DNA of 64,000 bases, from assembly GCA_964446685.1 (NCBI GenBank), contig CAYUPO010000001.1, forward strand, positions 104,502-168,501, in the 5' to 3' direction. Positions within the stretch are counted from its first letter, which is position 1. The number at the start of each line of letters is the position of its first letter. Origin of the DNA: an uncultured Gammaproteobacteria bacterium (GTDB taxonomy: Bacteria > Patescibacteriota > Microgenomatia > Daviesbacterales > UBA10151). A program made the position numbers and the translations under genes. This document shows positions 4,098 to 63,624 of this stretch, piece by piece. The notes under the pieces are model-generated. The model worked only from the letters and a program-made list of their open reading frames with translations. It was not told the origin of the DNA and searched no databases.

Positions 4098-4167
4098 GCT
4101 CGCCACGATCAGTTTCATGATTGTGGCTCGCCACGATCAGTTTCATGATTGTGGCTCGCAATGACGG
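4098..4167. repeat. 28-bp tandem direct repeat x2.5 (GCTCGCCACGATCAGTTTCATGATTGTG)
   Basis: two perfect units 4098-4125 and 4126-4153, then a partial third. Confidence 0.8.
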
Positions 4168-4171
4168 TTTC

Positions 4172-5278
4172 CTAACTCAGTATTAACTCAAGTTTATTTT
4201 GACCCACTGCCAGCTTGATTTCTTTTGCTACTCTTCTACCAACTGTAATCGGCTCACCGTATAAATATCCGGCATATGGGGTAGCTGAAATTCCCGGACT
4301 TCCCGGCATTCGGGGTGAAACATCAAAGACGACTATTTCTTTTTTTGGTGGACCAGGTAATATCATCGCCTGTAACCCAAATGGACCAATCACCCCTGGA
4401 TCTACATGTTTGGCTGCAGCGGCAACAAATCTTTCACCCATGGCAAATATATCTCCCAGTAAAGATTCTAAAACAGTGACTGCTATATGACCGGCTTCTT
4501 CGTATTTGACAGAAATACTTTGAATAACTTTTTCAATATCTACTCCAGGAATTTTGCTGAATCCTTCCAAATTAGTTTGTCTTCTGGTATCAGTGCCTGA
4601 GAGTTCAAGACGTTTAGTAATTGGAGAATAAAAATAATTAAAATTAACCTGTACCCCAACCAGAAACTCTTCAATCACTACTTTTTTAAGTTGCTCCTCT
4701 GTAAAATCTCCTCTTTCAAGTCTTAGTTCAACTTCTGACTGAAATTCTTTATAAGATGAGACAGTGAAAAAAGATCTTTCAAACCCTCTTTCCTGTTCCA
4801 GTACTTTGACCAGACATAATCTATCTATTTTTTTAGGATCGGTAAATTGTTTAGGGTAGCGAATTTTAGCTGCATCCAGTAAGTCATATTGATTTGGTTT
4901 GACTCCCCGTTCTTCAGTTTTGAGTAAAAATTTATTTCCAAACATCGGAACTTTAAACTTCTTTTCAATCGATGGATAGTCATTGAGATAGACCTCAAAT
5001 GATCTGTTGGGAACAAAGATGACATTTTTTTCTAACAGTTTTTTTTGAATATCAGGATTTAAAATATCTTTAAATTTTTCCAGTTCTAAAACCTCATCTA
5101 CACAACCTAATTCACCATTAGTTTTATAATGTTTACTGTAGACATCACCTCGGCCTTTTTGAGTAATAACCAGTGTTTTAAATCCTTCATCTTTGGCCCC
5201 TCTGGCAACATCTAAGGCAGAATGAGAACCAATAGAAGCAACTGTGATGTTTTGGCTGGTGTAAGATTTAAGATTCAT
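4172..5278 (-). CDS. purP: 5-formaminoimidazole-4-carboxamide ribonucleotide synthetase, archaeal-type (PurP), paralog 1
   Basis: 368 aa; N-terminal IGSHSALDV..GAKDEGF motif and ATP-grasp body match archaeal PurP. Confidence 0.7.
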   Translation of the reverse strand: MNLKSYTSQNITVASIGSHSALDVARGAKDEGFKTLVITQKGRGDVYSKHYKTNGELGCVDEVLELEKFKDILNPDIQKKLLEKNVIFVPNRSFEVYLNDYPSIEKKFKVPMFGNKFLLKTEERGVKPNQYDLLDAAKIRYPKQFTDPKKIDRLCLVKVLEQERGFERSFFTVSSYKEFQSEVELRLERGDFTEEQLKKVVIEEFLVGVQVNFNYFYSPITKRLELSGTDTRRQTNLEGFSKIPGVDIEKVIQSISVKYEEAGHIAVTVLESLLGDIFAMGERFVAAAAKHVDPGVIGPFGLQAMILPGPPKKEIVVFDVSPRMPGSPGISATPYAGYLYGEPITVGRRVAKEIKLAVGQNKLELILS

Positions 5279-5291
5279 GATTTACTAATTA

Positions 5292-5615
5292 TCAACTGCC
5301 CCCTACATCTGTCATTCTGGCTTGTCCAGAATCAAACAAAGTAGTATACAAATCGACCATTTCTGGATTCAAACTTTCTATCATTTTAAGTTTATTATCC
5401 CTATTCATATTTTTTATTTGTTTTTCCCGGATAATTCCTTCTATCTGTCCTTCAACAACTTCATAGTACAAAAGCTTATGCAAATGATACTTCCTAGTAA
5501 ATCCATCTACCAATTCTTCTTTATGCTCAGTAACTCTTTTTATTAAGTCACTTGTGACACCTGTATACAATGTAGGTCTATTATTACCCATAATGTAAAC
5601 ATACATCTGTTTCAT
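5292..5615 (-). CDS. GIY-YIG nuclease family protein (COG2827/YhbQ-like URI domain)
   Basis: 107 aa; YVYIMGNNRPTLYTGVTSDLIKRVTEH = GIY-YIG core; bracketed by inverted repeats 5311-5333 / 5624-5690. Confidence 0.7.
   Translation of the reverse strand: MKQMYVYIMGNNRPTLYTGVTSDLIKRVTEHKEELVDGFTRKYHLHKLLYYEVVEGQIEGIIREKQIKNMNRDNKLKMIESLNPEMVDLYTTLFDSGQARMTDVGGS
5311..5333. repeat. left inverted repeat flanking GIY-YIG gene 1 (GTCATTCTGGCTTGTCCAGAATC)
   Basis: reverse-complement halves found at 5624-5635 and 5680-5690. Confidence 0.65.
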
Positions 5616-5623
5616 CTTGTTTA

Positions 5624-5690
5624 GATTCTGGACAGATATTTTTAAGGCTAAGTTAATTCCAATCTAAACAATTAAGGTAGCCAGAATGAC
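5624..5690. repeat. right inverted repeat flanking GIY-YIG gene 1 (GATTCTGGACAG ... GCCAGAATGAC)
   Basis: RC of the left-repeat halves, split by a ~44-bp spacer. Confidence 0.6.
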
Positions 5691-7424: not shown

Positions 7425-8996
7425 TTATTCCCATTCCATAGTTGCGGGAGGCTTTGTTGTTATATCATAAACTACTCTATTAACTTCTGTTACTTCGGTT
7501 ACTATTCTGTTTGAAATTTTCATTAATAATTCAAATGGTAAATTAGCTACATCTGCACTCATGGCATCTTTAGCATCCAGAGCTCTTAAGGCAATTGTTT
7601 CTCCATAAACTCTTTGATCACCTCTGACACCGGTTGTTTTGATGTTTGTAAAAATAGCAAAAGCCTGCCAGAGTTTGTCCTGCAATTTGGCTTTTAAAAT
7701 CTCTTCCTGGACTATAAAATCCGCTTGCCTTAAAATCTCTAAATTATAGTCAGTGACAGCTCCAATGATTCTAACTGCAAGGCCTGGACCTGGGAATGGC
7801 TGTCTTTTAACCACTGAATCCGGCATTCCCAGCAATTTACCAACCTGTCTGACTTGATCTTTATAAAAAAGCCGCAAAGGCTCAATTAGGGCCAGTTTCA
7901 TGACTTCTGGTAGCCCACCAACATTGTGATGGGACTTTATATTCTGAGAATGTTTGGTTCCCTGACTTTCTATCACATCTGGATAAATTGTGCCCTGGAC
8001 TAGAAATGTGGCACCAATCTTTTTGGCTTCTCTGTCAAAGATATCTATGAATGTTTTACCAATAATTTTTCTTTTGGTTTCCGGATCAACTACTCCTTTT
8101 AAGGCAGATAGAAATTCTTTTTTGGCATTAATGATCTGCACTTTCATGTGATAATGGTCTTTAAAAACTTTTTTCAAAACATCAGTTTCTCCTTTTCGCA
8201 TTAGTCCTGAATCAATATAAAAAGAAGTAAGCTTGGTTCCGATTGCCCGATGAACTAAGAGAGCAGCAACTGATGAATCGACTCCGCCGGATAAAGCGCA
8301 GATCGCTTTTTCATTACCAACCGACTCTTTAATATCTTCAATCATTTCAGCTACATATTTTTTATTTAAGGGAGATAACTCTGGTTTTAAACCACAGATT
8401 TTTAGAAAGTTGGATAAAATTGTTTCACCAAATTGGGTATGCACTAACTCTGGATGAAACTGAATACCAAAAAGTTTTCTTTTTTCATCTGACATAGCAG
8501 CCACAGGAATAGTTTTGGTAGTGGCATTTGTGACAAATCCTTTTGGTGGTTTCATTACTGAATCTCCATGCGACATCCAGACATTAAATTCCTCAGATGT
8601 TCCTTCAAATAAAGAATTTGCTTTTGATACCTTTCCTACATTTGATACCTTTAAATTAGCTGGCCCATACTCCCGTATTTTCCCTGGTTTTACATCTCCT
8701 TTTAAAAGGTGTGCCATCAGTTGCTGCCCATAACAAATCCCTAAAATTGGAATACCTAATTTAAATACCTCTTCAGAAATAGTTGGACTATCTTTTTCAT
8801 AAACAGAAGACGGCCCTCCTGAAAAAATAATCCCCATAACGTCATTCCCGCGACCTGTACTGAGCGAAGTCGAAGTAAAGCGGGAATCTAAATCAATATT
8901 CTCTGGCAAAATAATTTTTGTCTTCACCCCAAATTCATTTATTCTCCGGGAAATCAGATGTGTTGATTGTGAACCAAAATCGATAATTATTATCAT
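7425..8996 (-). CDS. guaA: GMP synthase, glutamine-hydrolysing (GuaA), carrying a 48-bp in-frame palindromic-element insertion
   Basis: 523 aa; GATase CYGQQ, FHPE, PP-loop SGGVDSSV; extra DSRFTSTSLSTGRGND encoded by repeat at 8841-8888. Confidence 0.9.
   Translation of the reverse strand: MIIIIDFGSQSTHLISRRINEFGVKTKIILPENIDLDSRFTSTSLSTGRGNDVMGIIFSGGPSSVYEKDSPTISEEVFKLGIPILGICYGQQLMAHLLKGDVKPGKIREYGPANLKVSNVGKVSKANSLFEGTSEEFNVWMSHGDSVMKPPKGFVTNATTKTIPVAAMSDEKRKLFGIQFHPELVHTQFGETILSNFLKICGLKPELSPLNKKYVAEMIEDIKESVGNEKAICALSGGVDSSVAALLVHRAIGTKLTSFYIDSGLMRKGETDVLKKVFKDHYHMKVQIINAKKEFLSALKGVVDPETKRKIIGKTFIDIFDREAKKIGATFLVQGTIYPDVIESQGTKHSQNIKSHHNVGGLPEVMKLALIEPLRLFYKDQVRQVGKLLGMPDSVVKRQPFPGPGLAVRIIGAVTDYNLEILRQADFIVQEEILKAKLQDKLWQAFAIFTNIKTTGVRGDQRVYGETIALRALDAKDAMSADVANLPFELLMKISNRIVTEVTEVNRVVYDITTKPPATMEWE
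8841..8888. mobile_element. 48-bp palindromic element inserted in-frame in guaA
   Basis: GTCATTCCCGCG...CTGAGCGAAGTCGAAG...GCGGGAATC; exactly 16 codons. Confidence 0.7.
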
Positions 8997-14239: not shown

Positions 14240-14292
14240 GAAGATATACCTATTCTACAGATTGCTGTAACTAAGTCAAGGGCAACAAGTGG

Positions 14293-14340
14293 ATTAATTT
14301 GAAATTTGAAATTAGAAATTAGAAATTAGAAATTTAAATT
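14293..14340. repeat. AT-rich tandem heptamers (GAAATTA/TTTCTAA x5) just downstream of the pgi stop
   Basis: read directly. Confidence 0.6.
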
Positions 14341-27401: not shown

Positions 27402-28718
27402 TCAAGTAATTTTATTTTTTAGATATTTTTTATCTTTTAATTTATCAGGCAGTAAACTTTGATCTGTATACATTTCATAGCCTTTGCCGTATCCCACCTC
27501 TTTCATCAGCTTGGTTGGTGCATTTCTTAAGCTCATTGGTATAGGTAAATTGCCGTATTGTTTGACATCGGCCTGAGCTGCTCTGAATGCATCATAGGAT
27601 GTGCGGTCTTTTTTGGCAGATGCCAGATACACCACTCCATGAGCTAAATTAATACCACACTCTGGGTAGCCAATTGTTTCACAGGCTCTGAACACTTCAT
27701 TTGCCACAACCAAAGCTGTGGGTTGCGCCATACCAATATCTTCAGAAGCAAAGATCACCATTCTTCTGGCAATAAATAAAGGATCCTCCCCTGCTTCAAT
27801 CATTCTGGCTAAATAATAAAGAGCAGCATCAGGATTTGATGCCCGCATTGATTTGATAAAAGCTGAAATTGTATTGTAATGCTCTTCCCCGCCTTTGTCA
27901 TAAGCTAAAGCTTTGTGCTGGAGAGCCTCTTCAATAAGTTCTTTGGTGATTCTACCCTTGTCATGCTGAACCGATTCGGTCTGAGCCTCACGGTCGAAGA
28001 CTTGTTTCAGCATCTTCCCCTTGAATAAGTTCTCATTTTGATCAGCTTGAGAATTGGCAGATCCTGAAACAAGTTCAGGATGACAAAAATACGAAGCTAT
28101 TTCCAAAGTGTTCAAAATCATTCTGGCATCTCCGTTTGAATGTTCAATTAAAAATTCCTGAGCATCTTTAGCAATTTTTAGTTTTAAGTTTCCTAATCCT
28201 TTTTCTTTGTCTTTTAAAGCCCGGTTTATTAACTCTGAAATATCTTCCGGTTTTAGAGACTCTAATACAAACACTCTGGAACGGGATAACAACGGGGAAA
28301 TAATCTCAAAGCTGGGATTCTCAGTCGTCGCCCCAATCAGAGTGATTGTGCCATTTTCAACATATGATAAAAATGCATCCTGCTGGGCTTTATTAAAACG
28401 ATGAATTTCATCAATAAAAACAATAGTCTGCTTTTTTGAAAATAAAGTCCTTTGCCCTTTTAACTCTTCAAAGATTTTTTTCAGATCAGCTATTCCGGTA
28501 GTAACCGCTGAAAATTCCATAAAATCTGAATCTGTTTCATTGGCAATAATCCGGGCTAAGGTGGTTTTACCGACTCCCGGAGGACCCCAGAACATCATAG
28601 AAAAAATCCGGTTTTCTTTAATTGCGTTATAAAGCAGTTTACCAGGAGCTAAAATATGCTTTTGACCAACATAATCAGCGAGGGACTGCGGACGCATTCG
28701 GTCAGATAATGGAATCAT
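27402..28718 (-). CDS. rarA: replication-associated recombination protein A (RarA/MgsA AAA+ ATPase), carrying an in-frame palindromic-element insertion
   Basis: 438 aa; Walker [10 protein letters not shown], Walker B FIDEIH; repeat copy at 27965-28011 encodes [15 protein letters not shown]. Confidence 0.85.
27965..28011. mobile_element. palindromic element inserted in-frame in rarA
   Basis: GCTGAACCGATTCGGTCTGAGCCTCACGGTCGAAGACTTGTTTCAGC; paralog of 51-98. Confidence 0.65.
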
Positions 28719-35393: not shown

Positions 35394-35692
35394 CGTCATT
35401 CCAGCGAAAGTCATCGATTCTGAGGTCTAACGCCTCCACCTCCAGACTCGAAGAGCAGGCATCTGTAATAACAGGTTAGCAATTCATTAAATTTTCACCT
35501 AGTTATCAGAGAACAGATTCCCCTTTACAGGGGAATGACGTTTACTAGTTAATTATTAACTGACTTCCGGCCACAGCGGTAGTGGTTTCCGTCATTCCTG
35601 CGAAAGCAGGAATCTGTTATAACTGGAACTAACTAGGAAACTATTGAAACCCTGTATGAAAACAGCAGATTCCCCTTTTCAGGGGAATGACG
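35394..35692. repeat. array of at least four GTCATTCC-type palindromic elements in the folD-yjjX spacer
   Basis: 35516-35540, 35590-35616, 35666-35692 are clear hairpins (ATTCCCCT/AGGGGAAT, ATTCCTGC/GCAGGAAT); 35394-35430 is degenerate. Confidence 0.75.
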
Positions 35693-35697
35693 AATTT

Positions 35698-36243
35698 TTA
35701 ATTATAAAGTTCCGGGTTAATGAATCTGACTAGTGCTGATAGAACTCCAGATCTGTAAGCATCAGTTCTGGTAATCAGATTTTTTGTTAATAAACCAAAC
35801 TGTCCTTCCGCCTGCTTGGTATTTTTTCTTTTATATAAAATATCGCAGGCATCACCCAGTTCAAGTCCCTTTTCTAAAACCATTTCCATCATCTTATGCG
35901 GAGTATGCATTCTGATACTGGATCCAATACCCATTTTGCCACTTTTTTCAAAAACTATCACCCAGCCTGAATCAACATATTCTGAACCAATTTTTTGAAT
36001 TCCGCCTTCAATCCCTACTCCAAAATCAGCTTTTAGCTCTTTCAAAGCTCTTTTAGCCCGATTGATAGCCCCTTTAACTGATTCTTTATCCGACATTGGT
36101 TGATCGGAAACCCCGGAAGCTACATCAGACCCATTAACAACCCATTCTATCTCAGGCCAAACATCACTAAAAGCCAACCTAACAGCTTCCACTTTGACCG
36201 GATTTTTTGAACCAACAGCAACCGTTTTTCTTGGTTTATTCAT
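35698..36243 (-). CDS. yjjX: non-canonical purine NTP phosphatase (YjjX-like ITPase/XTPase)
   Basis: 181 aa; N-terminal VAVGSKNPVK, FGVGIEGG motif. Confidence 0.65.
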   Translation of the reverse strand: MNKPRKTVAVGSKNPVKVEAVRLAFSDVWPEIEWVVNGSDVASGVSDQPMSDKESVKGAINRAKRALKELKADFGVGIEGGIQKIGSEYVDSGWVIVFEKSGKMGIGSSIRMHTPHKMMEMVLEKGLELGDACDILYKRKNTKQAEGQFGLLTKNLITRTDAYRSGVLSALVRFINPELYN

Positions 36244-36415
36244 AGTTAAATTTCTAAGTACTAATTTCTAATTACTAAATAATGTCTAATGAATAAATTC
36301 TTGCTTCGCAATGAATAAATTCTTGCTTCGCAATGAATAAATGTCTAAAGAGTTTAGTCATTAGTATTTGGGATTTGTTTAGGAATTAGAAATTAGAGTA
36401 ATTAGAAATTTTTCT
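36244..36415. repeat. AT-rich spacer with inverted TTTCTAATT / AATTAGAAA heptamer arms plus a 23-bp direct repeat (AATGAATAAATTCTTGCTTCGCA x2)
   Basis: read directly. Confidence 0.6.
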
Positions 36416-38556: not shown

Positions 38557-38667
38557 AAAAAAACAAGTGGATCAATTTGGATCAAAATAATTTAGGATTG
38601 AAAGTTTAAATTTTATATTTAGAACTGAAGTAAATTAAACTATTTTACTAATTAACTAATTCACTAA

Positions 38668-40248
38668 TTAACTATTAAATATTTCGGCGGCGATTCTGAT
38701 GACTTCATCATCCTGAGCTAGTTCGACATTGGCTAGCTCTTCGACTCTGACCGGTCTCTGGCTTAAAGTGGTGGTTACCCGGGCTGGTTTTCCTAAAACA
38801 TCAGTTAAAACTGATTCAAGCAAATTTCGGGAACGGGGAGTTTCCAATATCCTCTGATGGAAAGCATAAGGCACCTCCAAAATCACTATCCCATTATCAC
38901 AGCCCATCAGATTCGCCTGTTTAAGCAGCGCTTCCAGGGAAAAATTGTCAGGTCTGATGGTTTCTAAAATATAATCCCATTTTTCCCGCAATACGATGAT
39001 TTCATGGGAGGGAGCAATCTCCACCTGCTCTTTGAGCATCTGATGGGGCGGGATCTTATCATCTTTCCCTGTATTTACAGGCTGTGAGGGAGAGGATATT
39101 TCACCAATTGTCTGAACCATAGTCATCTGAGGCGCAATCATGTTTGGAGAAATGACCGGAGCCTGAATTCCCAGACAGCTTTCAACTACGGCAACTTCAA
39201 GTGGAAGTGTTGGAATTGAGGTGTATTTTAACTGTTCTAAACTATCTTGAATTAGCTGAATGGAATGCACTAGCTCTCTTTTATTAAATGCAGTAGCCAA
39301 AGTCGTTAATTCTTCATAAATCTCACTACCAAACTGTTGTTTAACACTGATACCTGCCTGAGACTGAATTAGCATCAGCGAGCGCAACACCTCCAGTAAT
39401 TGGGTTGTTCCCTCTTTGACATTTGCCCCTTTTTCCGACAGCTGATAAATAACTGCCAATGCATTGGCGGAATCTTTGCGGGAGATAGCTCCTGCCAGAT
39501 TTAAAATATCTTTAAAACTGGTTGATTTAAGACCTTCTTCGACAGACTGAAGCGTGATTTTTCCTCCGGAGGAAGCGATCTGATCCAGCAGCTTCAAACC
39601 GTCTCTAAAACTCCCGTCCGCTTTACGGGCCAGCAACTTTAAAGCGGCTTCTTCAGCTTCTATTTTTTCTTCTTTGACTACCCGGGATAAAGCTTTAAGC
39701 AGATCTTCTGTGGAAGCAGTCTGAAAATCCAGACGTTGCACCCTGGACAAAATAGTTTGTGGCAGCTTATGCACTTCAGTGGTCGCCAAAATAAAAGCAA
39801 CATGAGAAGGAGGCTCTTCCAGAGTTTTTAGCAAAGCATTAAATGCTTCTGTAGTCAGCATATGAACTTCATCAATAATATAAACTTTTTTCTTAGCCTG
39901 GGTCGGAGCTAGTTTTATCCGCTCCTTCAGATCCCGGATATCATCAATTCCCCTGTTTGAGGCTGCATCAATCTCCATTAAATCCAAATTGGATCCATCA
40001 GTGATAGACAGACACATATTACATTTATTGCAAGGAACTGTTTCCATCTCAGTTCCTTTAACTTCACAGTTGATCATTTTAGCCACTATCCTGGCAGTTG
40101 AAGTTTTACCAGTGCCCCTGGGGCCGCAAAAGAGATAAGCATGGGACAGTTTTTCTGCCTGGTGAGCTTTGAACAGGGTTAATTTGATCTGATCCTGACC
40201 AATAAGTTCTGAAAGTGTTTGTGGACGATACTTGCGATAGAAAACCAT
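38668..40248 (-). CDS. dnaX: DNA polymerase III subunit gamma/tau
   Basis: 526 aa; GPRGTGKTS, zinc module CNKCNMC, SRC/sensor motifs. Confidence 0.9.
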   Translation of the reverse strand: MVFYRKYRPQTLSELIGQDQIKLTLFKAHQAEKLSHAYLFCGPRGTGKTSTARIVAKMINCEVKGTEMETVPCNKCNMCLSITDGSNLDLMEIDAASNRGIDDIRDLKERIKLAPTQAKKKVYIIDEVHMLTTEAFNALLKTLEEPPSHVAFILATTEVHKLPQTILSRVQRLDFQTASTEDLLKALSRVVKEEKIEAEEAALKLLARKADGSFRDGLKLLDQIASSGGKITLQSVEEGLKSTSFKDILNLAGAISRKDSANALAVIYQLSEKGANVKEGTTQLLEVLRSLMLIQSQAGISVKQQFGSEIYEELTTLATAFNKRELVHSIQLIQDSLEQLKYTSIPTLPLEVAVVESCLGIQAPVISPNMIAPQMTMVQTIGEISSPSQPVNTGKDDKIPPHQMLKEQVEIAPSHEIIVLREKWDYILETIRPDNFSLEALLKQANLMGCDNGIVILEVPYAFHQRILETPRSRNLLESVLTDVLGKPARVTTTLSQRPVRVEELANVELAQDDEVIRIAAEIFNS

Positions 40249-40445
40249 ATGAGGATTCTTAGATTACCATAGTTCCACAGTAAAGGGTCAAGATAGAAGA
40301 ATAACTATGGAACAGATAGAAAGAGGTAAGTCCTGAGGAAATTTCTAATTTCTAATTACTAATTGACCTAAATAAATTCCAGTTTCTAAGAAGCTAAACT
40401 ACTTAAACATTATTTAGAAATTAGGTTAATTAGAAATTAGAAATT
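40249..40445. repeat. AT-rich spacer with inverted TTTCTAATTTCTAATTACTAATT / TTAGAAATTAGG..TTAGAAATTAGAAATT arms (dnaX-ybeY)
   Basis: read directly. Confidence 0.6.
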
Positions 40446-40859
40446 TTAATGTTGGTGTATTCCCAGGAGGTGGCTGGTGCCGTGTTCGACTAGCATTCGG
40501 ATCTCTTCTTCAACAGCAACTCCCTCAGCAACAGCATCTTTTTTGGCTTCCGGATAGGAAATGACAATATCACCCAGTCTGGTGATTTTATCCGGTGAGG
40601 GCACAAAACCCATTTTGCTAAGATGCATCACACCATTTTTTTGAGGTTGTTCATAGGGAAAAGAAAGAATATTTGTGGTGCTATCAATACCCCTATAAGT
40701 TTTGTTAATCTCGTGCATCTGATTGTCACCGACAATCGTAATACCTATTTCAATATTTCCATGGATCTGATGCCTTTTTAAGACCTCCATAGCAGCTGAC
40801 TGGACAGCGAATTTGTTAATTTCAAATTTTGTATCAGAATTGACAATAATATTAACCAT
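40446..40859 (-). CDS. ybeY: rRNA maturation endoribonuclease YbeY
   Basis: 137 aa; HGTSHLLGIHQH metal-binding H-box. Confidence 0.75.
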   Translation of the reverse strand: MVNIIVNSDTKFEINKFAVQSAAMEVLKRHQIHGNIEIGITIVGDNQMHEINKTYRGIDSTTNILSFPYEQPQKNGVMHLSKMGFVPSPDKITRLGDIVISYPEAKKDAVAEGVAVEEEIRMLVEHGTSHLLGIHQH

Positions 40860-41301: not shown

Positions 41302-41425
41302 AGTTAAAATTTCTAATCACTAATTGCACTAATTCCTAAATAAATCCAAAATCAGAATGTCTAAAAATTAGGATTTAGAAATTTAGTATTGTTTAGTAAT
41401 TAGAAATTAGTACTTAGACATTGCT
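41302..41425. repeat. AT-rich spacer with inverted TTTCTAAT / ATTAGAAA arms (yqeY-rpsU)
   Basis: read directly. Confidence 0.55.
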
Positions 41426-41629
41426 TTAGCTGGCATCAGCTAAACGTTGTGCTCTTCTGATTTTGCGTCGTCTTTCAGCTAACTGTTCTTTTCTTTTTTC
41501 AGAATTTTTTTTGTGAAACATCAGATCACGATATTCCTGAACCACTTTTTCCGCAATAGATTTTTTCTGAAATTTACGGATAACTGAATCAGTACTATCA
41601 TTTCCTGAAGCTTTAATAATAATTGGCAT
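41426..41629 (-). CDS. rpsU: 30S ribosomal protein S21
   Basis: S21-like RKFQKK..RRRKIRRAQR; start placed at MPIIIK because the ORF-track N-terminal extension (41630-41734) is made of AT-rich inverted repeats. Confidence 0.6.
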   Translation of the reverse strand: MPIIIKASGNDSTDSVIRKFQKKSIAEKVVQEYRDLMFHKKNSEKRKEQLAERRRKIRRAQRLADAS

Positions 41630-41866
41630 AAACTGGGTTAGTAGATCGTTTTTTGTATATCGTGTATCGTTAATCGTATATCGGAAAACAGATTCCTGCT
41701 TTTTCCGATAAACCATACACGATTTACGATTCACTATTACGATTTACTAATAAAAACACCTCCTTTGGTAATTCTAACACGATTATCGCATTAGTTTGAT
41801 CTATTTTACCACAAAAAACCTAATTTGGGGAAACAAAAGCAAAGTCACCGTTTAGACAAATACTTG

Positions 41867-41882
41867 CTGAGCGAAGTCGAAG
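41867..41882. repeat. left IR of GIY-YIG gene 2 (CTGAGCGAAGTCGAAG)
   Basis: perfect RC at 42222-42237; the same 16-mer lies inside the guaA insert. Confidence 0.8.
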
Positions 41883-41928
41883 CATTTCAATATTGCTTTT
41901 TAAATAACTGATCATTATTATCCAGATC

Positions 41929-42198
41929 ATGAGTAGCTGGAAATGGTTTGTGTATATTTTAGAATGTCAGGATGGAAGTTATTACACTGGATTAAGTTAT
42001 AGATATGATCAGCGATATGAACAGCATTTATCTGGATTGGGAGGTAAATACACAGCTAACCATGGAGTTAAAAAATTAGTATATGTTGAGGAATATGATA
42101 ACTTCGAGGAAGCTAAGTTAAGAGAAAACCAGATCCATGGATGGACAAGAAAAAAGAAAGAAAACCTAATAATAGGCAAATGGACAAAATGGCAATAG
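41929..42198 (+). CDS. GIY-YIG nuclease family protein (COG2827/YhbQ-like), second copy
   Basis: 89 aa; WFVYILECQDGSYYTGLS...QH core; bracketed by perfect 16-bp inverted repeat CTGAGCGAAGTCGAAG (41867-41882 / 42222-42237). Confidence 0.7.
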   Translation: MSSWKWFVYILECQDGSYYTGLSYRYDQRYEQHLSGLGGKYTANHGVKKLVYVEEYDNFEEAKLRENQIHGWTRKKKENLIIGKWTKWQ

Positions 42199-42221
42199 GG
42201 TTTTAGCCCAGTAATGAATTC

Positions 42222-42237
42222 CTTCGACTTCGCTCAG
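42222..42237. repeat. right IR of GIY-YIG gene 2 (CTTCGACTTCGCTCAG)
   Basis: perfect RC of 41867-41882. Confidence 0.8.
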
Positions 42238-42258
42238 GAAATATTAAATAAAATTGAA

Positions 42259-43257
42259 TTATTTAACGATAGTTTTGAGAAGATTGAGGGTTTTTGTTTG
42301 TCTTAAGGCGTGTCTTAAATGCATTCTTGGTTCCTGTGACTGGAATTGGGATTTGACTCTGGCGTCCTGGATCTTGTCTATTTCTGCCTGGAGCTCTTCA
42401 TCAGTAATATTTACATTTTCCATTCGAGCGATTTCGGAGAGACCAAGCTCCATTCGAACATTTCTTTCCGCCTGTGGACGCCATTCTGTTTTGATTTGTT
42501 CAGCAGTTTTATTTTGAGTTTTTAAGTATTCTTCAAGCAACATCCCTCTGTCAGAAACATTTCTTTGCAGAGAAAGCATCATTCTGTTTAATTCGTCCTG
42601 AATTAACACTTCTGGGATATCAACATTGGTGACTTTTTCAACTTCCTGCAGAATTGATTCTTCATAATCCAGTTCATTGTTGTATTTAGATTCACTTTCT
42701 AAATCAGTTTTAATTTTAGTTTTAAGATCAGCCAGACTTTCTGCTCCAACACCTTTGGCAAACACATCATCCATAGTTGCCTGAGCATTTTCGGCGTTGC
42801 GGGATTTCCAGCGGTTAAATAAATCATCGATTACTTTTTGAACTTCTTCATCAGTCACCTGTTTAGCAAGTGGTCTTTTAGCGTTTAAAATTTTGTAGTT
42901 ACCTATTTTAACTGTTGGTCTTTCAGTTACCTTAGCGGTAAATACTAACTGAGATCCTTTAGTAAATGAAATAACATTGTATTGTGGATAATCAATTGGT
43001 ACTACATTTGATCCCTGTAACGCTTCGATCAGAGCCTGAGGCATCACTATTTTGAAAACTTCCTGCTGCAGAGAGTTAGCAATTCTTGGCTCAACCATAT
43101 TAGCTGGAGCCTGACCTTTGCGGAAACCGGCAACCTCAACTTCTGAAGCTAACTTGTTATACATATCGTTCCAACGAGCCTCAATATCTGCCCATGGCAC
43201 GGTAATTGTCACTTCGACCTGGGCTTTTGGTAATTTGTTGATTGTTTTAGTCACCAT
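42259..43257 (-). CDS. tig: trigger factor, short form (ribosome-binding and C-terminal arm domains; no recognisable PPIase domain)
   Basis: 332 aa; N-terminal GFRKGQAP ribosome-binding signature. Confidence 0.7.
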   Translation of the reverse strand: MVTKTINKLPKAQVEVTITVPWADIEARWNDMYNKLASEVEVAGFRKGQAPANMVEPRIANSLQQEVFKIVMPQALIEALQGSNVVPIDYPQYNVISFTKGSQLVFTAKVTERPTVKIGNYKILNAKRPLAKQVTDEEVQKVIDDLFNRWKSRNAENAQATMDDVFAKGVGAESLADLKTKIKTDLESESKYNNELDYEESILQEVEKVTNVDIPEVLIQDELNRMMLSLQRNVSDRGMLLEEYLKTQNKTAEQIKTEWRPQAERNVRMELGLSEIARMENVNITDEELQAEIDKIQDARVKSQFQSQEPRMHLRHALRQTKTLNLLKTIVK

Positions 43258-47444: not shown

Positions 47445-47452
47445 GTTGTTTA

Positions 47453-47479
47453 CAGATTCCTGCTTTCGCAGGAATGACG
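47453..47479. repeat. palindromic element CAGATTCCTGCTTTCGCAGGAATGACG between tsf and frr
   Basis: same hairpin type as 35590-35616 and 51427-51450. Confidence 0.7.
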
Positions 47480-47495
47480 ATTGCAAAGGTTCAAA

Positions 47496-51361: not shown

Positions 51362-51373
51362 CCCGTTTTAATC

Positions 51374-51450
51374 CGTCATTCCCCTGAAAAGGGGAATCTG
51401 TAAATACCTAAGAGTAGGCACCGCATATTCCTGCTTTCGCAGGAATGACG
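51374..51450. repeat. two palindromic elements between the thyA-family gene and dcd-like gene
   Basis: CGTCATTCCCCTGAAAAGGGGAATCTG and ATTCCTGCTTTCGCAGGAATGACG. Confidence 0.75.
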
Positions 51451-51452
51451 TT

Positions 51453-52127
51453 TTGACAAAAGAAAAACTTATGACACAAGGAATATTAACCAAACAACAA
51501 ATATTAGAATTGATTGAGTCAGAACAGCTCAAATTTTCCCCAGCAATTGATTCATTTCAGGTCCAATCACATTCCATCGATCTGCGACTCGGGTATTCAT
51601 TCATGATCCCTAAACTATGGTCTTTGACTGAGAAAGGACGCGAAGCCTTTTTGATTGATTATCTGGATGAAACTGAAAGATTTGAACTGGTTGAGCTGGA
51701 GCACAAACAATTTTTTGACCTTTTACCAAAAGAATCGGTTGTCGCTTCAACTCTTGAAGAAGTCTCCTTACCAGCTAATTTAATGGCTGTCCTCTACCCA
51801 CGTTCTTCTATTAATCGACGCGGCCTGTCTGTTGATCTTTCTGGTATTGTTGATGCCGGATATGAAGGAAGGTTGTTGATACCTATTACCAATAACACGC
51901 CACATGTAATCAGAATTTACCCAGGTGAAAGGTTTTGCCAGTTAGTATTTTATCCACTGTCTGAAGATATTAAGGTAGAACAAAGCAGATGGCATAAAAA
52001 GGATATTATTATAGGTAGACTCCCTGAAAAGAAAAAAGCTGAGGAAAAATATATTGTCTCTGGCGATATAAAAGGATTAAAACAAAAGTTTGCTCTGACT
52101 GCTCCTAAAACCAATGATTCAAAGTAA
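51453..52127 (+). CDS. dCTP deaminase / dUTPase-superfamily protein (Dcd-like)
   Basis: 224 aa; SIDLRLG, LYPRSS, GIVDAGYEGRL motifs; the position aligning to the Dcd catalytic Glu appears to be non-acidic. Confidence 0.6.
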   Translation: MTKEKLMTQGILTKQQILELIESEQLKFSPAIDSFQVQSHSIDLRLGYSFMIPKLWSLTEKGREAFLIDYLDETERFELVELEHKQFFDLLPKESVVASTLEEVSLPANLMAVLYPRSSINRRGLSVDLSGIVDAGYEGRLLIPITNNTPHVIRIYPGERFCQLVFYPLSEDIKVEQSRWHKKDIIIGRLPEKKKAEEKYIVSGDIKGLKQKFALTAPKTNDSK

Positions 52128-55398: not shown

Positions 55399-55403
55399 TT
55401 TTT

Positions 55404-55479
55404 GTCATCCCGAACTCGTTTCGGGATCTACCCTTTTGTATAACCTCGGCAGATGCTGAAACAAGTTCAGCATGACAAG
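55404..55479. repeat. two palindromic elements between mazG-like gene and pyrG (GTCATCCCGAACTCGTTTCGGGATC; GATGCTGAAACAAGTTCAGCATGAC)
   Basis: second one shares CTGAAACAAG with the 51-98 / 27965-28011 variant. Confidence 0.65.
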
Positions 55480-55484
55480 GTATA

Positions 55485-57098
55485 TTATGTTAACTTAACT
55501 TTAGATGCAGCTTCTAGAAAACCCAGAAACATTGGATGAGGAGCCAATGGGCGGGATTTGAGCTCTGGATGAAACTGTGAACCGGCCATAAATGGGTGAT
55601 CCGCAATCTCCATGATTTCGACTAATTTTCCATCAGGAGAAGTTCCGACAATATTTAGGCCTTTTTTCTCAAATTCTTCCCGATATTTGTTGTTCACTTC
55701 ATAACGGTGACGGTGTCTTTCGGATACTTTGGCTTTTCCATAAAGTTTTCTCATTAGTGATCCGGCTTTGAGGTCACATTCCCAGGCACCCAGTCTCATA
55801 CTGGCTCCATAATCTTTGGCTAAGACCTTTTTCTCCTGATCTGACATGATATGGATGACCGGAGCTTTGGTAGCAGGATCTATCTCGGTTGAGTTGGCAT
55901 CTTTGTATCCAAGCACATTGCGGGCAAATTCAATCGCCATCATTTGCATGCCATAACACAAACCAAGATAAGGAATTTTGTTTTCCCGGCAATATTTAGC
56001 TGCAGCTACTTTGCCTTCGGTATCTCTGCCGCCAAAGCCGCCTGGCACAATAATTCCCTGATAGTTATCAAGTAGTTCAGGTTTTTCTAAAACTTTTCCT
56101 GAATCGACCCAGTGAATATCGGGTTTTAATCCAAACTGATAGGCTGCATGTTTGCAGGCTTCAATAACCGAAATATATGAATCAGTCAGGACTCCGGCGC
56201 CACTGGTAAAATATTTGCCGACGATCGCAATTTTTACCGGAGTTTTAGCGCTGTGGGCTTTTTTAACAAATTCACTCCATTCTTTTAAATCAGTCTCTTT
56301 TCTTTCCAGTTCAAGTTTTTTCAGTATTCGATCGGTCAGGTTTTGTTTTTCATAATCTAAAGGCACATCATAAATACTTTCCACATCAGGGGCTGCAATA
56401 ATATCTTCCTCTTCTATTCCTGTATTCAAAGATAATCGTTTGCGACGGGGGGCATCTATTGCTACTTCAGCTCTGGCTAAAATAATATCGGGTTGGATCC
56501 CGACAGAATTTAAATCCCTGACAGACATCTGAACCGGTTTACTTTTCATTTCACCTAGTGTGGAAGGAATTGGCAGATAACTGATATGGACATGGATCAC
56601 ATCGTTATGTTTTTTTAGTTTCATCAGACGGTTGGCTTCCAAAAATAGCATATTTTGGTATTCCCCGGCGGTACCACCTATTTCAACCAAGACAATATCA
56701 GCATTTTTATTTCTACCGGCATCCTGAATTCTTTTTAATATTTCCTGAGTGACGTTGTGAATATCTACATAGTCGCCGTCGTATTCCAGATTGCGTTCTT
56801 TTTGGATAACAGATAAATAAATACTACCCTGAGTATTAATACTGGAAGATGTTAGATTTTCGTTGAGGTATCTTTCATAGTGTCCAAGATCCTGATCAGT
56901 CTCTCTACCATCATCCAGGACAAATGTTTCACCATGAGCGAGTGGATTCATAGTTCCGGCATCAACATTTAGATAAGGATCCATTTTGACTGGTACGACT
57001 TTAAATCCAGCAGCTTTGAGGAGGAGGCCAATCGAGGCAGTTGCAATGCCTTTTCCAATACCCGATATTACGCCACCTGATACAAAAATGTATTTCAT
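55485..57098 (-). CDS. pyrG: CTP synthase
   Basis: 537 aa; VSGGVISGIGKG N-terminus, GATase GLCYGMQ. Confidence 0.9.
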   Translation of the reverse strand: MKYIFVSGGVISGIGKGIATASIGLLLKAAGFKVVPVKMDPYLNVDAGTMNPLAHGETFVLDDGRETDQDLGHYERYLNENLTSSSINTQGSIYLSVIQKERNLEYDGDYVDIHNVTQEILKRIQDAGRNKNADIVLVEIGGTAGEYQNMLFLEANRLMKLKKHNDVIHVHISYLPIPSTLGEMKSKPVQMSVRDLNSVGIQPDIILARAEVAIDAPRRKRLSLNTGIEEEDIIAAPDVESIYDVPLDYEKQNLTDRILKKLELERKETDLKEWSEFVKKAHSAKTPVKIAIVGKYFTSGAGVLTDSYISVIEACKHAAYQFGLKPDIHWVDSGKVLEKPELLDNYQGIIVPGGFGGRDTEGKVAAAKYCRENKIPYLGLCYGMQMMAIEFARNVLGYKDANSTEIDPATKAPVIHIMSDQEKKVLAKDYGASMRLGAWECDLKAGSLMRKLYGKAKVSERHRHRYEVNNKYREEFEKKGLNIVGTSPDGKLVEIMEIADHPFMAGSQFHPELKSRPLAPHPMFLGFLEAASKVKLT

Positions 57099-63456: not shown

Positions 63457-63489
63457 ATTATATAGTGTAGCAGGAAAAGAGGGTGGGAG

Positions 63490-63530
63490 TTAATTAGTTA
63501 ATTAGTTAATTAGTTAATTAGTTAATTAGT
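63490..63530. repeat. tandem octamer TTAATTAG x5 upstream of the Clp ATPase gene
   Basis: read directly. Confidence 0.8.
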
Positions 63531-63624
63531 GAACAGGTTATAAGCCAAGCATCTGTGCTAAAACTTTTTTGGTTGATTTAACTTTTAATCTGATTAACTA
63601 TTCTCTAGTTAACTGATTAACTCG

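Follow-up and report, generated by a model that had tools for sequence, protein, structure and literature searches.

The 64-kb stretch of DNA analysed here (64,000 nucleotides of contig CAYUPO010000001.1 from a Daviesbacteria genome, hereafter the window) carries a gene for an 89-residue GIY-YIG nuclease in the chromosomal intergenic spacer between rpsU and the trigger factor gene tig, and this gene is bracketed by two inverted hairpins. The region is probably a cassette in which, as in Ssn/NTS systems, a nuclease is combined with its cognate hairpins, but both the hairpin class and the GIY-YIG subfamily differ. The pairing of a small GIY-YIG nuclease with flanking hairpin repeats is already published for Ssn (PMC11893778). 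New with respect to the papers searched are the GA-core, TTATT-tagged hairpin class and its UPF0213-like partner, the prevalence of this pairing in Patescibacteria, a rule connecting residue 73 of the protein with the hairpin stem, and the nesting of such hairpins in CGTC-tagged hairpins within essential genes.

A single-domain GIY-YIG nuclease of UPF0213 type

The 89-residue protein matched the Pfam family GIY-YIG (PF01541; E 1.2e-15, 58 bits at a cut-off of 22.6) from residue 5 to 79, a single domain thus covering almost the whole length of a protein shorter than 150 amino acids (aa). The catalytic residues Y9, Y19, R29, H33 and E66 as well as K77 are invariant in 27 homologs, and as predicted from this conservation the protein is a catalytically intact single-domain GIY-YIG nuclease. 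Only two matches were obtained in the Protein Data Bank (PDB) at E up to 1, both of them UPF0213 proteins: EF2693 (1ywl, E 2.3e-9) and BH0048 (1zg2, E 5.5e-15), the sequence of which is about 42% identical across 78 residues. The first-pass annotation had suggested a comparison with YhbQ-type and with homing-type enzymes; this comparison placed the protein as UPF0213/YhbQ-like, and no homing enzyme was matched in the PDB at the same threshold. The protein is 29% identical to the product of the other GIY-YIG gene in the window, and locus L207 encodes a GFTSKY...NPKWRDL-type protein to which its identity is 34%. Searches of NCBIfam, PADLOC and PHROGs with both GIY-YIG proteins of the window gave zero matches, so that neither a described defence system nor an established family of phage proteins is supported. 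For two homologs (P0013 and P0044) the database gene calls begin within the upstream hairpin, which results in spurious N-termini such as MLRQAQ, the translation of CTTCGACAAGCTCAG.

Anatomy and covariation of the hairpins

The first-pass annotation had reported a 16-mer at 41867-41882 and its exact reverse complement at 42222-42237 around the 89-aa reading frame, and both were confirmed. The exact 16-mer CTGAGCGAAGTCGAAG occurs in the window at 41867-41882 (+), 42222-42237 (-) and 8860-8875 (+), and zero matches were found in 100 dinucleotide-preserving shuffles with 2 mismatches tolerated. The third copy, located in guaA, is indeed present and identical, and only its position had to be corrected from 8861-8876. 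A variant fourth copy, CTGAGC-CTCACG-GTCGAAG at 27981-27999, had been overlooked, and the inverted repeat proved longer than previously stated, with arms of 37 nucleotides (nt) at 41859-41895 and 42209-42245 which are complementary to 84%.

The anatomy of the repeat was derived by listing all copies and profiling their flanks across the loci of homologous genes. From 5′ to 3′ it comprises an unpaired tag (consensus TTATT, positions -8 to -4), a 4-bp stem consisting of three free nucleotides and one Y-R pair, the invariant core GAGC...GTCGA, and an apex of either 2-3 nt (most commonly TT or GAA) or 10-32 nt. Long apices usually make a perfect stem-loop of their own, bracketed by GA...GA, whose inner stems differ from one another. 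The core permits a tandem mismatch of G.A and A.G beside a G-C pair, whereas the opposite strand would give C.T and T.C; as this asymmetric core offers G.A pairs on one strand only, the hairpin is strand-specific.

The left element of the cassette carries the tag ATACT (41860-41864), the stem TGCT/AGCA (41865-41868/41881-41884) and the core GAGC-GAA-GTCGA. The right element has the tag ATATT (42244-42240), the stem TCCT/AGGA (42239-42236/42223-42220) and the same core, so that the two stems differ by a compensatory change, G-C versus C-G. Together with the stems TACT/AGTA and GTCT/AGAC of the two solo copies, the window contains four copies with four different perfect stems, and the mismatches between the arms of the inverted repeat are therefore compensatory within each arm. 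These stems show each arm to be a predicted hairpin in its own right.

Covariation was quantified on 93 distinct short elements. The four stem pairs and the G-C pair of the core were paired in 94.8% of cells versus 70% in shuffles, and double-sided changes were found in 139 cells versus 48; 0 of 500 shuffles attained the observed value for pairing or for double changes. When the partners were slid by one to three columns the signal collapsed. Complementarity amounted to 90-97% at the four stem positions and was at chance level, 30-41%, directly outside them. Rfam searches with the whole window (at the gathering score) and with ten related loci (E up to 1) returned only tRNAs and a spurious microRNA match on a palindrome, hence the hairpin is not a described RNA family.

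Hairpins beside homologous genes

A first search for homologs of the 89-residue protein gave 66 matches, and a scan of one genome per species gave 561 relatives, the best 80 loci of which were analysed. They derive mostly from Patescibacteria, and further from Omnitrophota, WOR-3 and metagenome-assembled genomes labelled Gammaproteobacteria. In all of the first four independent homolog loci (4/4), the gene was accompanied on either side by CTGAGC-(variable)-GTCGAAG, read directly or as the reverse complement. Across the 80 loci, a loose form of the motif reached 5.9-6.5 copies per kb up to 300 nt from the gene versus 0.34 per kb farther away, the latter being near a rough chance estimate of about 0.25 per kb. 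For a strict form, 85 copies (1.26 per kb) were counted within the same distance versus 17 (0.029 per kb) farther away, an enrichment of approximately 44-fold, and one first-order Markov randomisation of each locus contained 2 copies.

The motif flanks the gene on both sides in 50 of the 74 loci with enough flanking sequence. Orientation was assessed with stringent elements, defined by a perfect 3-bp outer stem. Of the innermost upstream elements, 46 share the strand of the gene and 13 do not; of the innermost downstream elements, 54 are inverted and 12 are not. The commonest layout, found at 34 loci, is hairpin(+)-gene-hairpin(-) with the tags pointing outward. In about 20 loci the downstream element begins 2-3 nt past the stop codon, and in about 33 a gap of 4-24 nt separates the end of the upstream element from the ATG. 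The cassette of the window keeps the common layout with slightly larger gaps, 44 nt from the end of the left element to the ATG and 21 nt from the stop codon to the right element. Inverted doublets lacking a gene, again with tags outward, were also observed (e.g. L037 654-713 and L084 7305-7364). As a negative control, 37 viral loci encoding relatives at up to 51% identity were inspected, and the motif was not found beside the gene.

Taken together, the non-random association of nuclease gene and flanking repeat, proposed in the first-pass annotation from the window itself, recurs around homologous genes. The 16-mer did not turn out to be a common word unrelated to these genes, nor was the reading frame found to be conserved without repeats in distant relatives.

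Residue 73 of the nuclease co-varies with the stem

Two main stem types were distinguished, CCT...AGG with a T-A pair adjoining the core and TTC...GAA with a C-G pair in this position. Apart from 3 mixed loci, each locus has stems of one type only, T-A in 30 loci and C-G in 42. The alignment column which best matched the stem type was residue 73 (window numbering): Thr is present in 29 of 31 T-A loci and Ser or Asn in 38 of 39 C-G loci, so that 67 of 70 loci obey the rule (accuracy 0.97). The next-best columns were G71 (0.90) and S17 (0.87). The 89-residue protein has S17, G71 and T73, the residues accompanying CCT/AGG-type stems, and its own hairpins are of the T-A type. Within the GIY-YIG fold, residues 17 and 71-74 presumably lie beside the catalytic Tyr and after the helix of the catalytic Glu, respectively.

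Mean protein identity was 0.64 within a stem type versus 0.60 between types, and in a neighbour-joining tree residue and stem type switch together about 8-10 times. Two genomes each encode a pair of paralogs of opposite type which obey the rule, L011 (T73) and L067 (S73) in DATIIS01, and L042 (T73) and L086 (S73) in CAYOCD01. As both types coexist within one genome in these pairs, the rule is not simply due to lineage or base composition. This link between residue 73 and the stem, measured by a statistic which ignores phylogeny, is the strongest evidence pointing to a protein that reads its flanking hairpins.

Gain or loss of the cassette in the tig-rpsU spacer

Five loci with a trigger factor at least 96% identical (L001-L005) have kept the cassette with both arms intact. 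In L091 and L092, the trigger factors of which are 91% identical, rpsU follows tig after 171 nt, and this spacer contains no GIY-YIG gene and no hairpin element. The suspected lack of the whole unit, repeat-gene-repeat, from the orthologous spacer of close relatives is thus borne out. The missing unit comprises about 415-445 nt; no target-site duplication or direct repeat is evident at its junctions, which are ambiguous to about 30 nt. A candidate relic hairpin at the empty site of L091 was rejected as not significant, having 14/22 matches in one alignment, no better than the alternative, and no pattern element. Locus L093, despite an identical trigger factor, has an unrelated 95-aa reading frame after tig, and in L094 and L095 (trigger factor 75-77% identical) a gene with a Clp_N domain occupies the site. 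These differing contents identify the tig-rpsU spacer as a variable site.

In the Microgenomates locus L006, where the GIY-YIG protein is 64% identical, the neighbourhood proS...rpsU-yqeY-ybeY-dnaX is kept and the orientation of the gene is opposite; genomic contexts vary among homologs. Recent transposition was rejected, as paralogs within the same genome are too diverged. One paralog (L081 4980-5153) is cut to 57 aa and probably decaying, with hairpins still flanking it; L078 lies 18 kb away on the same contig. As judged from these comparisons, close relatives differ by the gain or loss of the cassette as a whole. It is therefore probably a selfish element, either still or formerly so, and resembles a RAYT gene situated between repetitive extragenic palindromes (REPs).

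CGTC-tagged hairpins, a second GIY-YIG gene and nesting

The window contains 11 hairpins of another type, composed of (C/T)GTCAT(T/C)C, a stem of 7-8 bp, a loop of 4-5 nt and then ATCT. Hairpins of this type have been described as CGTC-tagged REPs (Di Nocera et al. 2013) and as NTS/SRM hairpins (Chenal et al. 2025). The published SRM pattern (HGTCWY N0-2 YYVSBRH N0-5 WNVSBRG N0-2 RNCYNB) matches only three of the copies in the window, none of them beside the 89-aa gene, and had zero matches within 300 nt of 80 homologous genes. Clusters of CGTC-tagged hairpins are found at 35513-35696, 47452-47482, 51370-51453, 55399-55478 and 28056-28086, with the stem variants CCCCTG, CCTGCG and CC(T/C)GAAC. 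Three copies fall within 180 nt at 35513-35696, and the clusters at 51370-51453 and 55399-55478 are head-to-head pairs.

The other GIY-YIG gene of the window, coding for 107 aa, is bracketed by inverted TGTCATTCTGG hairpins with tags outward at 5311-5332 (+) and 5625-5690 (-), in agreement with the earlier observation that this gene, too, is framed by inverted hairpins, which belong to the CGTC class. Both hairpins have the form TGTCATTCTGG...CCAGAATC, and the upstream one (5625-5690) has a loop of 49 nt rather than 5 nt. The 107-aa protein matched BH0048 only at E 0.03 and is 48% identical to the GFTSKY...NPKWRDL-type protein of L207. Judged by its sequence, the region 5292-5690 resembles a cassette of the classical Ssn/NTS type, here carried by a member of the Daviesbacteria. 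The two GIY-YIG genes thus belong to different subfamilies, each with a separate hairpin class. The view that the 16-mer is a motif of the dispersed palindromes had to be abandoned: it belongs to a separate family of self-folding hairpins, members of which are nested in CGTC loops at two places.

One of these is the guaA copy, which lies in the 28-nt loop of a CGTC-tagged hairpin (8840-8889) with the stem ATTCCCGC (8844-8851)/GCGGGAAT (8880-8887). The guaA gene (7425-8996, minus strand) has an insertion of 10 residues in the glutaminase domain relative to the GMP synthase structure PDB 7sbc, exactly at this composite hairpin and with the frame kept. The other is the copy at 27979-28001 in the loop of a GTCAT-tagged hairpin (27959-28016) inside the reading frame 27402-28718 (minus strand). 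This MgsA/RarA-like gene contains two head-to-head GTCAT hairpins in frame at 27955-28090, where the Pfam match AAA_assoc_2 is split into two stretches; hairpins in this AAA+ gene recall the reported bias of intragenic REPs toward replication and repair genes.

Over all loci, 27 of approximately 330 elements are enclosed by outer stems of 7-11 bp, the rough chance expectation being about 4, and short elements sit in the apex of longer ones at L028 and L065. The outer stem is variable and the tag lies in its 5′ internal loop in L108, L128, L145, L154, L158, L163, L211, L020, L084 and others. This enclosure suggests that the element is larger and has two levels, or else that it was inserted into palindromes already present, and the nesting fits insertion at hairpin tips, short of proof. 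A hybrid element at L052 8350-8390, AGTCATTC-TGAGCGAGCGAAGCGAGTCGAAG-GATCT, combines a GTCAT tag, an ATCT tail and a GA core and bridges the two hairpin classes.

The core in metagenome contigs

A scan of metagenome contigs for the exact 16-mer gave at least 137 occurrences in at least 120 stretches. Among the matches listed, 105 of 137 have a perfect stem; chance would give about 6% by an estimate of 1 in 16 for the two unfixed pairs, and these copies are accordingly real hairpins. The matches listed lie mostly in GC-rich contigs (median 56% G+C), and their 5′ tags are AGCCTG-like in 39, GTCA-containing in 14 and other in 47 cases. An example of the GTCA class, CGTCA-TCCT-GAGCGAAGTCGA-AGGA-TC, has an NTS-type tag. 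Small GIY-YIG genes of either subfamily were found beside an element in L122, L128, L164 and L207. In L105 (4270-4366), on a 447-kb metagenome contig, the exact 16-mer hairpin is repeated four times in tandem with 27-nt spacing. Apparently, the GA-core hairpin is a widespread scaffold with varied tags, and the loci from Patescibacteria represent the class with the TTATT tag, which accompanies the UPF0213-like nuclease. Since the core is widespread and constrained, and since the guaA copy has the tag GACCTG, the identity of this copy reflects the conserved core and not recent copying.

Other features of the window

The features discussed are collected in Table 1. The cassette is neighboured by rpsU (41426-41734) and the trigger factor gene (42259-43257), both on the minus strand. 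A partial match to the outer flank of the right arm at 56727-56755 is ordinary sequence without the core and was taken as chance, and a tRNA scan of the window found none. Many intergenic spacers (14291-14339, 36241-36396, 40339-40450 and 41304-41422), including those on both sides of ybeY-yqeY, adjoining the region studied, contain AT-rich series of heptamers resembling (A)ATTAGAA/TTAGAAAT, which occur in either orientation. Further repeats are a perfect 28-bp tandem duplication (GCTCGCCACGATCAGTTTCATGATTGTG, two copies) at 4098-4153, just downstream of a purP-like gene (4172-5278), and an octamer tandem repeat (AGTTAATT)n at 63488-63535 with a related inverted stretch at 38638-38679.

Table 1. 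Positions in the window of the cassette, related hairpins and the second GIY-YIG gene.
Feature	Position	Strand	Basis or remarks
Left hairpin element	41860-41884	+ (gene strand)	Family consensus and covariation
89-aa single-domain GIY-YIG nuclease gene, UPF0213/YhbQ-like	41929-42198	+	Pfam, PDB matches, homologs
Right hairpin element, inverted	42220-42244	-	Family consensus and covariation
Block absent in near strains (hairpin, gene, hairpin and some flank)	~41815-42257		Spacer comparison
Solo hairpin of the same family	8858-8877	+	Stem TACT/AGTA, exact 16-mer core, 5′ tag GACCTG; in guaA
Solo hairpin of the same family	27979-28001	+	Stem GTCT/AGAC, apex CTCACG; in MgsA/RarA-like AAA+ gene
Other GIY-YIG gene, 107 aa	5292-5615	-	Candidate classical Ssn type

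Comparison with known systems

Literature searches on the repeat sequence, on YhbQ/UPF0213 and on GIY-YIG proteins with REPs or hairpins identified only two relevant papers, PMC11893778 and PMC3733652. Ssn proteins are small single-domain GIY-YIG proteins (CDD cd10448) which cut single-stranded DNA beside NTS/SRM hairpins, and their genes are typically flanked by such hairpins; SsnA of Neisseria meningitidis was found biochemically to cut only single-stranded DNA beside the NTS hairpin (PMC11893778). The cassette described here likewise combines a small single-domain GIY-YIG protein with inverted hairpins of 20-50 nt on both sides which have an oriented, unpaired 5′ tag, with further copies dispersed in the genome, and in both cases nucleases and hairpins form pairs with their own specificities. 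It differs in that the hairpin of the 89-aa gene fails the SRM pattern and has a TTATT-like tag instead of CGTC, and in that a 4-bp stem and a fixed GAGC/GTCGA core with tandem G.A replace a Watson-Crick stem of 7-9 bp. Moreover, the closest solved structure of the protein is UPF0213 BH0048, dispersed copies are few in Patescibacteria, and the present system is known from sequence alone.

CGTC-tagged REPs (dRS3, RPE-4/6), for which no dedicated transposase was found (PMC3733652), are also short tagged palindromes, often arranged as head-to-head dimers and sometimes situated in replication or repair genes, and within the window they host two GA-core hairpins in their loops. They are nevertheless of another sequence class than the 16-mer hairpin, and the 2013 study described them without an associated enzyme (PMC3733652). 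REP/REPIN-RAYT systems resemble the cassette in that an enzyme gene is bracketed by inverted hairpins and inverted doublets without a gene occur; RAYT, however, belongs to the HUH Y1 transposases (IS200/IS605 family), which act on single strands by a mechanism that is known, whereas the enzyme here is a GIY-YIG nuclease. These systems, also termed REPtrons, are mostly inherited vertically and show low activity.

The best sequence match is to UPF0213 proteins (YhbQ of E. coli, BH0048 of B. halodurans and EF2693 of E. faecalis), which likewise consist of a single domain of about 90-100 aa. To our knowledge, and in the papers searched, these proteins have not been linked to a cognate repeat or hairpin. 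Homing endonucleases of the I-TevI type share the GIY-YIG catalytic domain and presence or absence between strains, but they have long DNA-binding extensions and cut double-stranded intron-less alleles.

Proposed mechanism and alternative explanations

The putative recognition site is a strand-specific DNA hairpin with a TTATT-like tag, a 4-bp stem, a GAGC...GTCGA core and either a free apex of 2-3 nt or an additional stem-loop. By analogy with SsnA, the protein would most likely bind this hairpin folded in single-stranded DNA, as formed in replication, repair or transformation, and might then nick beside it, near the tag. Two such hairpins, inverted, bracket the gene, with solo, doublet and nested copies elsewhere in the genome. 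The sequences themselves show the anatomy of the hairpins, the covariation of their stems, their enrichment beside the gene, their co-variation with residue 73 and the presence/absence polymorphism, whereas binding, single-strand specificity, the position of cleavage and any mobilisation are inferred.

Several observations weigh against a nuclease dedicated to its flanking hairpins. Ten of 85 loci have no stringent element, and paralogs of the same genome share only the gene and the hairpins, at 68-86% nucleotide identity. The selection pattern of the covariation alignment partly imposes the Y-R pair. Under standard DNA parameters, the folding of short-form hairpins is weak (-1.8 kcal/mol, z about 0) and no better than that of shuffles, so that the structural case rests on covariation and not on energy; the parameters used leave out the stabilisation by tandem G.A, and one long-form hairpin attains z = -3. 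The number of joint switches of residue and stem was taken from a noisy neighbour-joining tree of proteins of about 89 aa. In the metagenome set, only 2 of the 110 assessable matches listed lie up to 400 nt from a gene of the subfamily of the 89-residue protein, and these dispersed copies with other tags indicate that the core is not exclusive to nucleases of this type.

Overlapping with the proposed nuclease-hairpin pairing is the notion that mobilisation is primary, i.e. that the cassette is an autonomous mobile element, a GIY-YIG counterpart of RAYT/REP in which the nuclease copies or moves the hairpins and its own cassette with a preference for the tips of other hairpins, essential genes included. 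We regard this as possible though rather unlikely. It would account for terminal hairpins that are inverted with tags outward, for a site that is occupied in some close relatives and cleanly empty in others, for several diverged copies per genome of which one is truncated (L081), for inverted doublets without a gene, and for nesting, as seen in L028, L065, both solo copies of the window and the 27 enclosed elements. CGTC-type REPs, moreover, have no known transposase (PMC3733652), and the authors of the Ssn study raise the same idea (PMC11893778). Against this stand the lack of near-identical copies in any genome sampled and of an evident target-site duplication, and the low copy number in Patescibacteria, 0.029 per kb outside the vicinity of the gene. 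With another gene at the site in the outgroups L094 and L095, L091 and L092 could also have lost the cassette. We also know of no GIY-YIG enzyme with strand-transfer catalysis. Dispensability between close strains argues against the similarly tentative idea of a domesticated host function, in which the nuclease would, as Neisseria SsnA, cut incoming or exposed single-stranded DNA at hairpins and tune natural transformation or recombination, with the flanking hairpins being self-regulatory or relics; with few dispersed sites per small genome, a genome-wide role also seems weak. The SsnA/NTS precedent speaks for it, as do the conservation of the catalytic residues over 561 relatives and the same neighbourhood of the gene in L006, which suggests long residence. 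Where the upstream hairpin ends shortly before the ATG, as in about 33 loci, its 3′ half (GTCGAAGGG/GTCGAGAAG) could in addition double as a ribosome-binding site.

A homing-type endonuclease, the gene of which would spread through cleavage of sites that are empty or bear a hairpin, followed by repair that copies it in, appears improbable. The GIY-YIG domain and the presence/absence polymorphism would agree with it, and the repeated flanks could offer short homology, but the protein is a bare catalytic domain of 89 aa lacking a DNA-binding extension, its PDB matches up to E 1 are UPF0213 only and no PHROG was matched. Furthermore, the gene lies outside any intron or intein, its contexts differ between homologs, and the empty sites have no hairpin that could serve as target. 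Least probable is that the inverted repeat is due to chance or is purely regulatory, a terminator or operator unrelated to nuclease activity. Hairpins near start and stop codons could indeed affect expression; yet the expectation by chance in shuffles was zero, a scan of 41700-42300 revealed neither an excess of promoters nor a terminator nor a terminator-like T-tract, and Rfam gave no match for the element. Hairpins of this family also stand alone within coding genes, and the stem type co-varies with a residue of the protein.

Implications

Site-specific nucleases for single-stranded DNA were first described in 2025, and the only hairpin class so far tied to them is that of the CGTC-tagged NTS/SRM elements. 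The locus and its relatives point to a second pairing of nuclease and hairpin, with another hairpin architecture and another branch of the protein family, which is widespread in Patescibacteria, whose genomes are small enough for counting every site. One can speculate further, with considerable reserve, that UPF0213/YhbQ-like nucleases beyond cd10448 are hairpin-specific single-strand nucleases which co-evolve with tagged hairpins and seed them at hairpin tips, even in frame in guaA and mgsA. If true, this would provide a function for the YhbQ family and an enzyme for the orphan REP-like repeats of many phyla, and residue 73 would be a specificity determinant for engineering cutters of single-stranded DNA. 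Thr versus Ser/Asn at this position, together with the two stem types, constitutes a testable specificity rule that could widen the toolbox of programmable cutters. The pairing also bears on the question of what spreads tagged REP-like hairpins that have no transposase, and on the function of UPF0213/YhbQ proteins.

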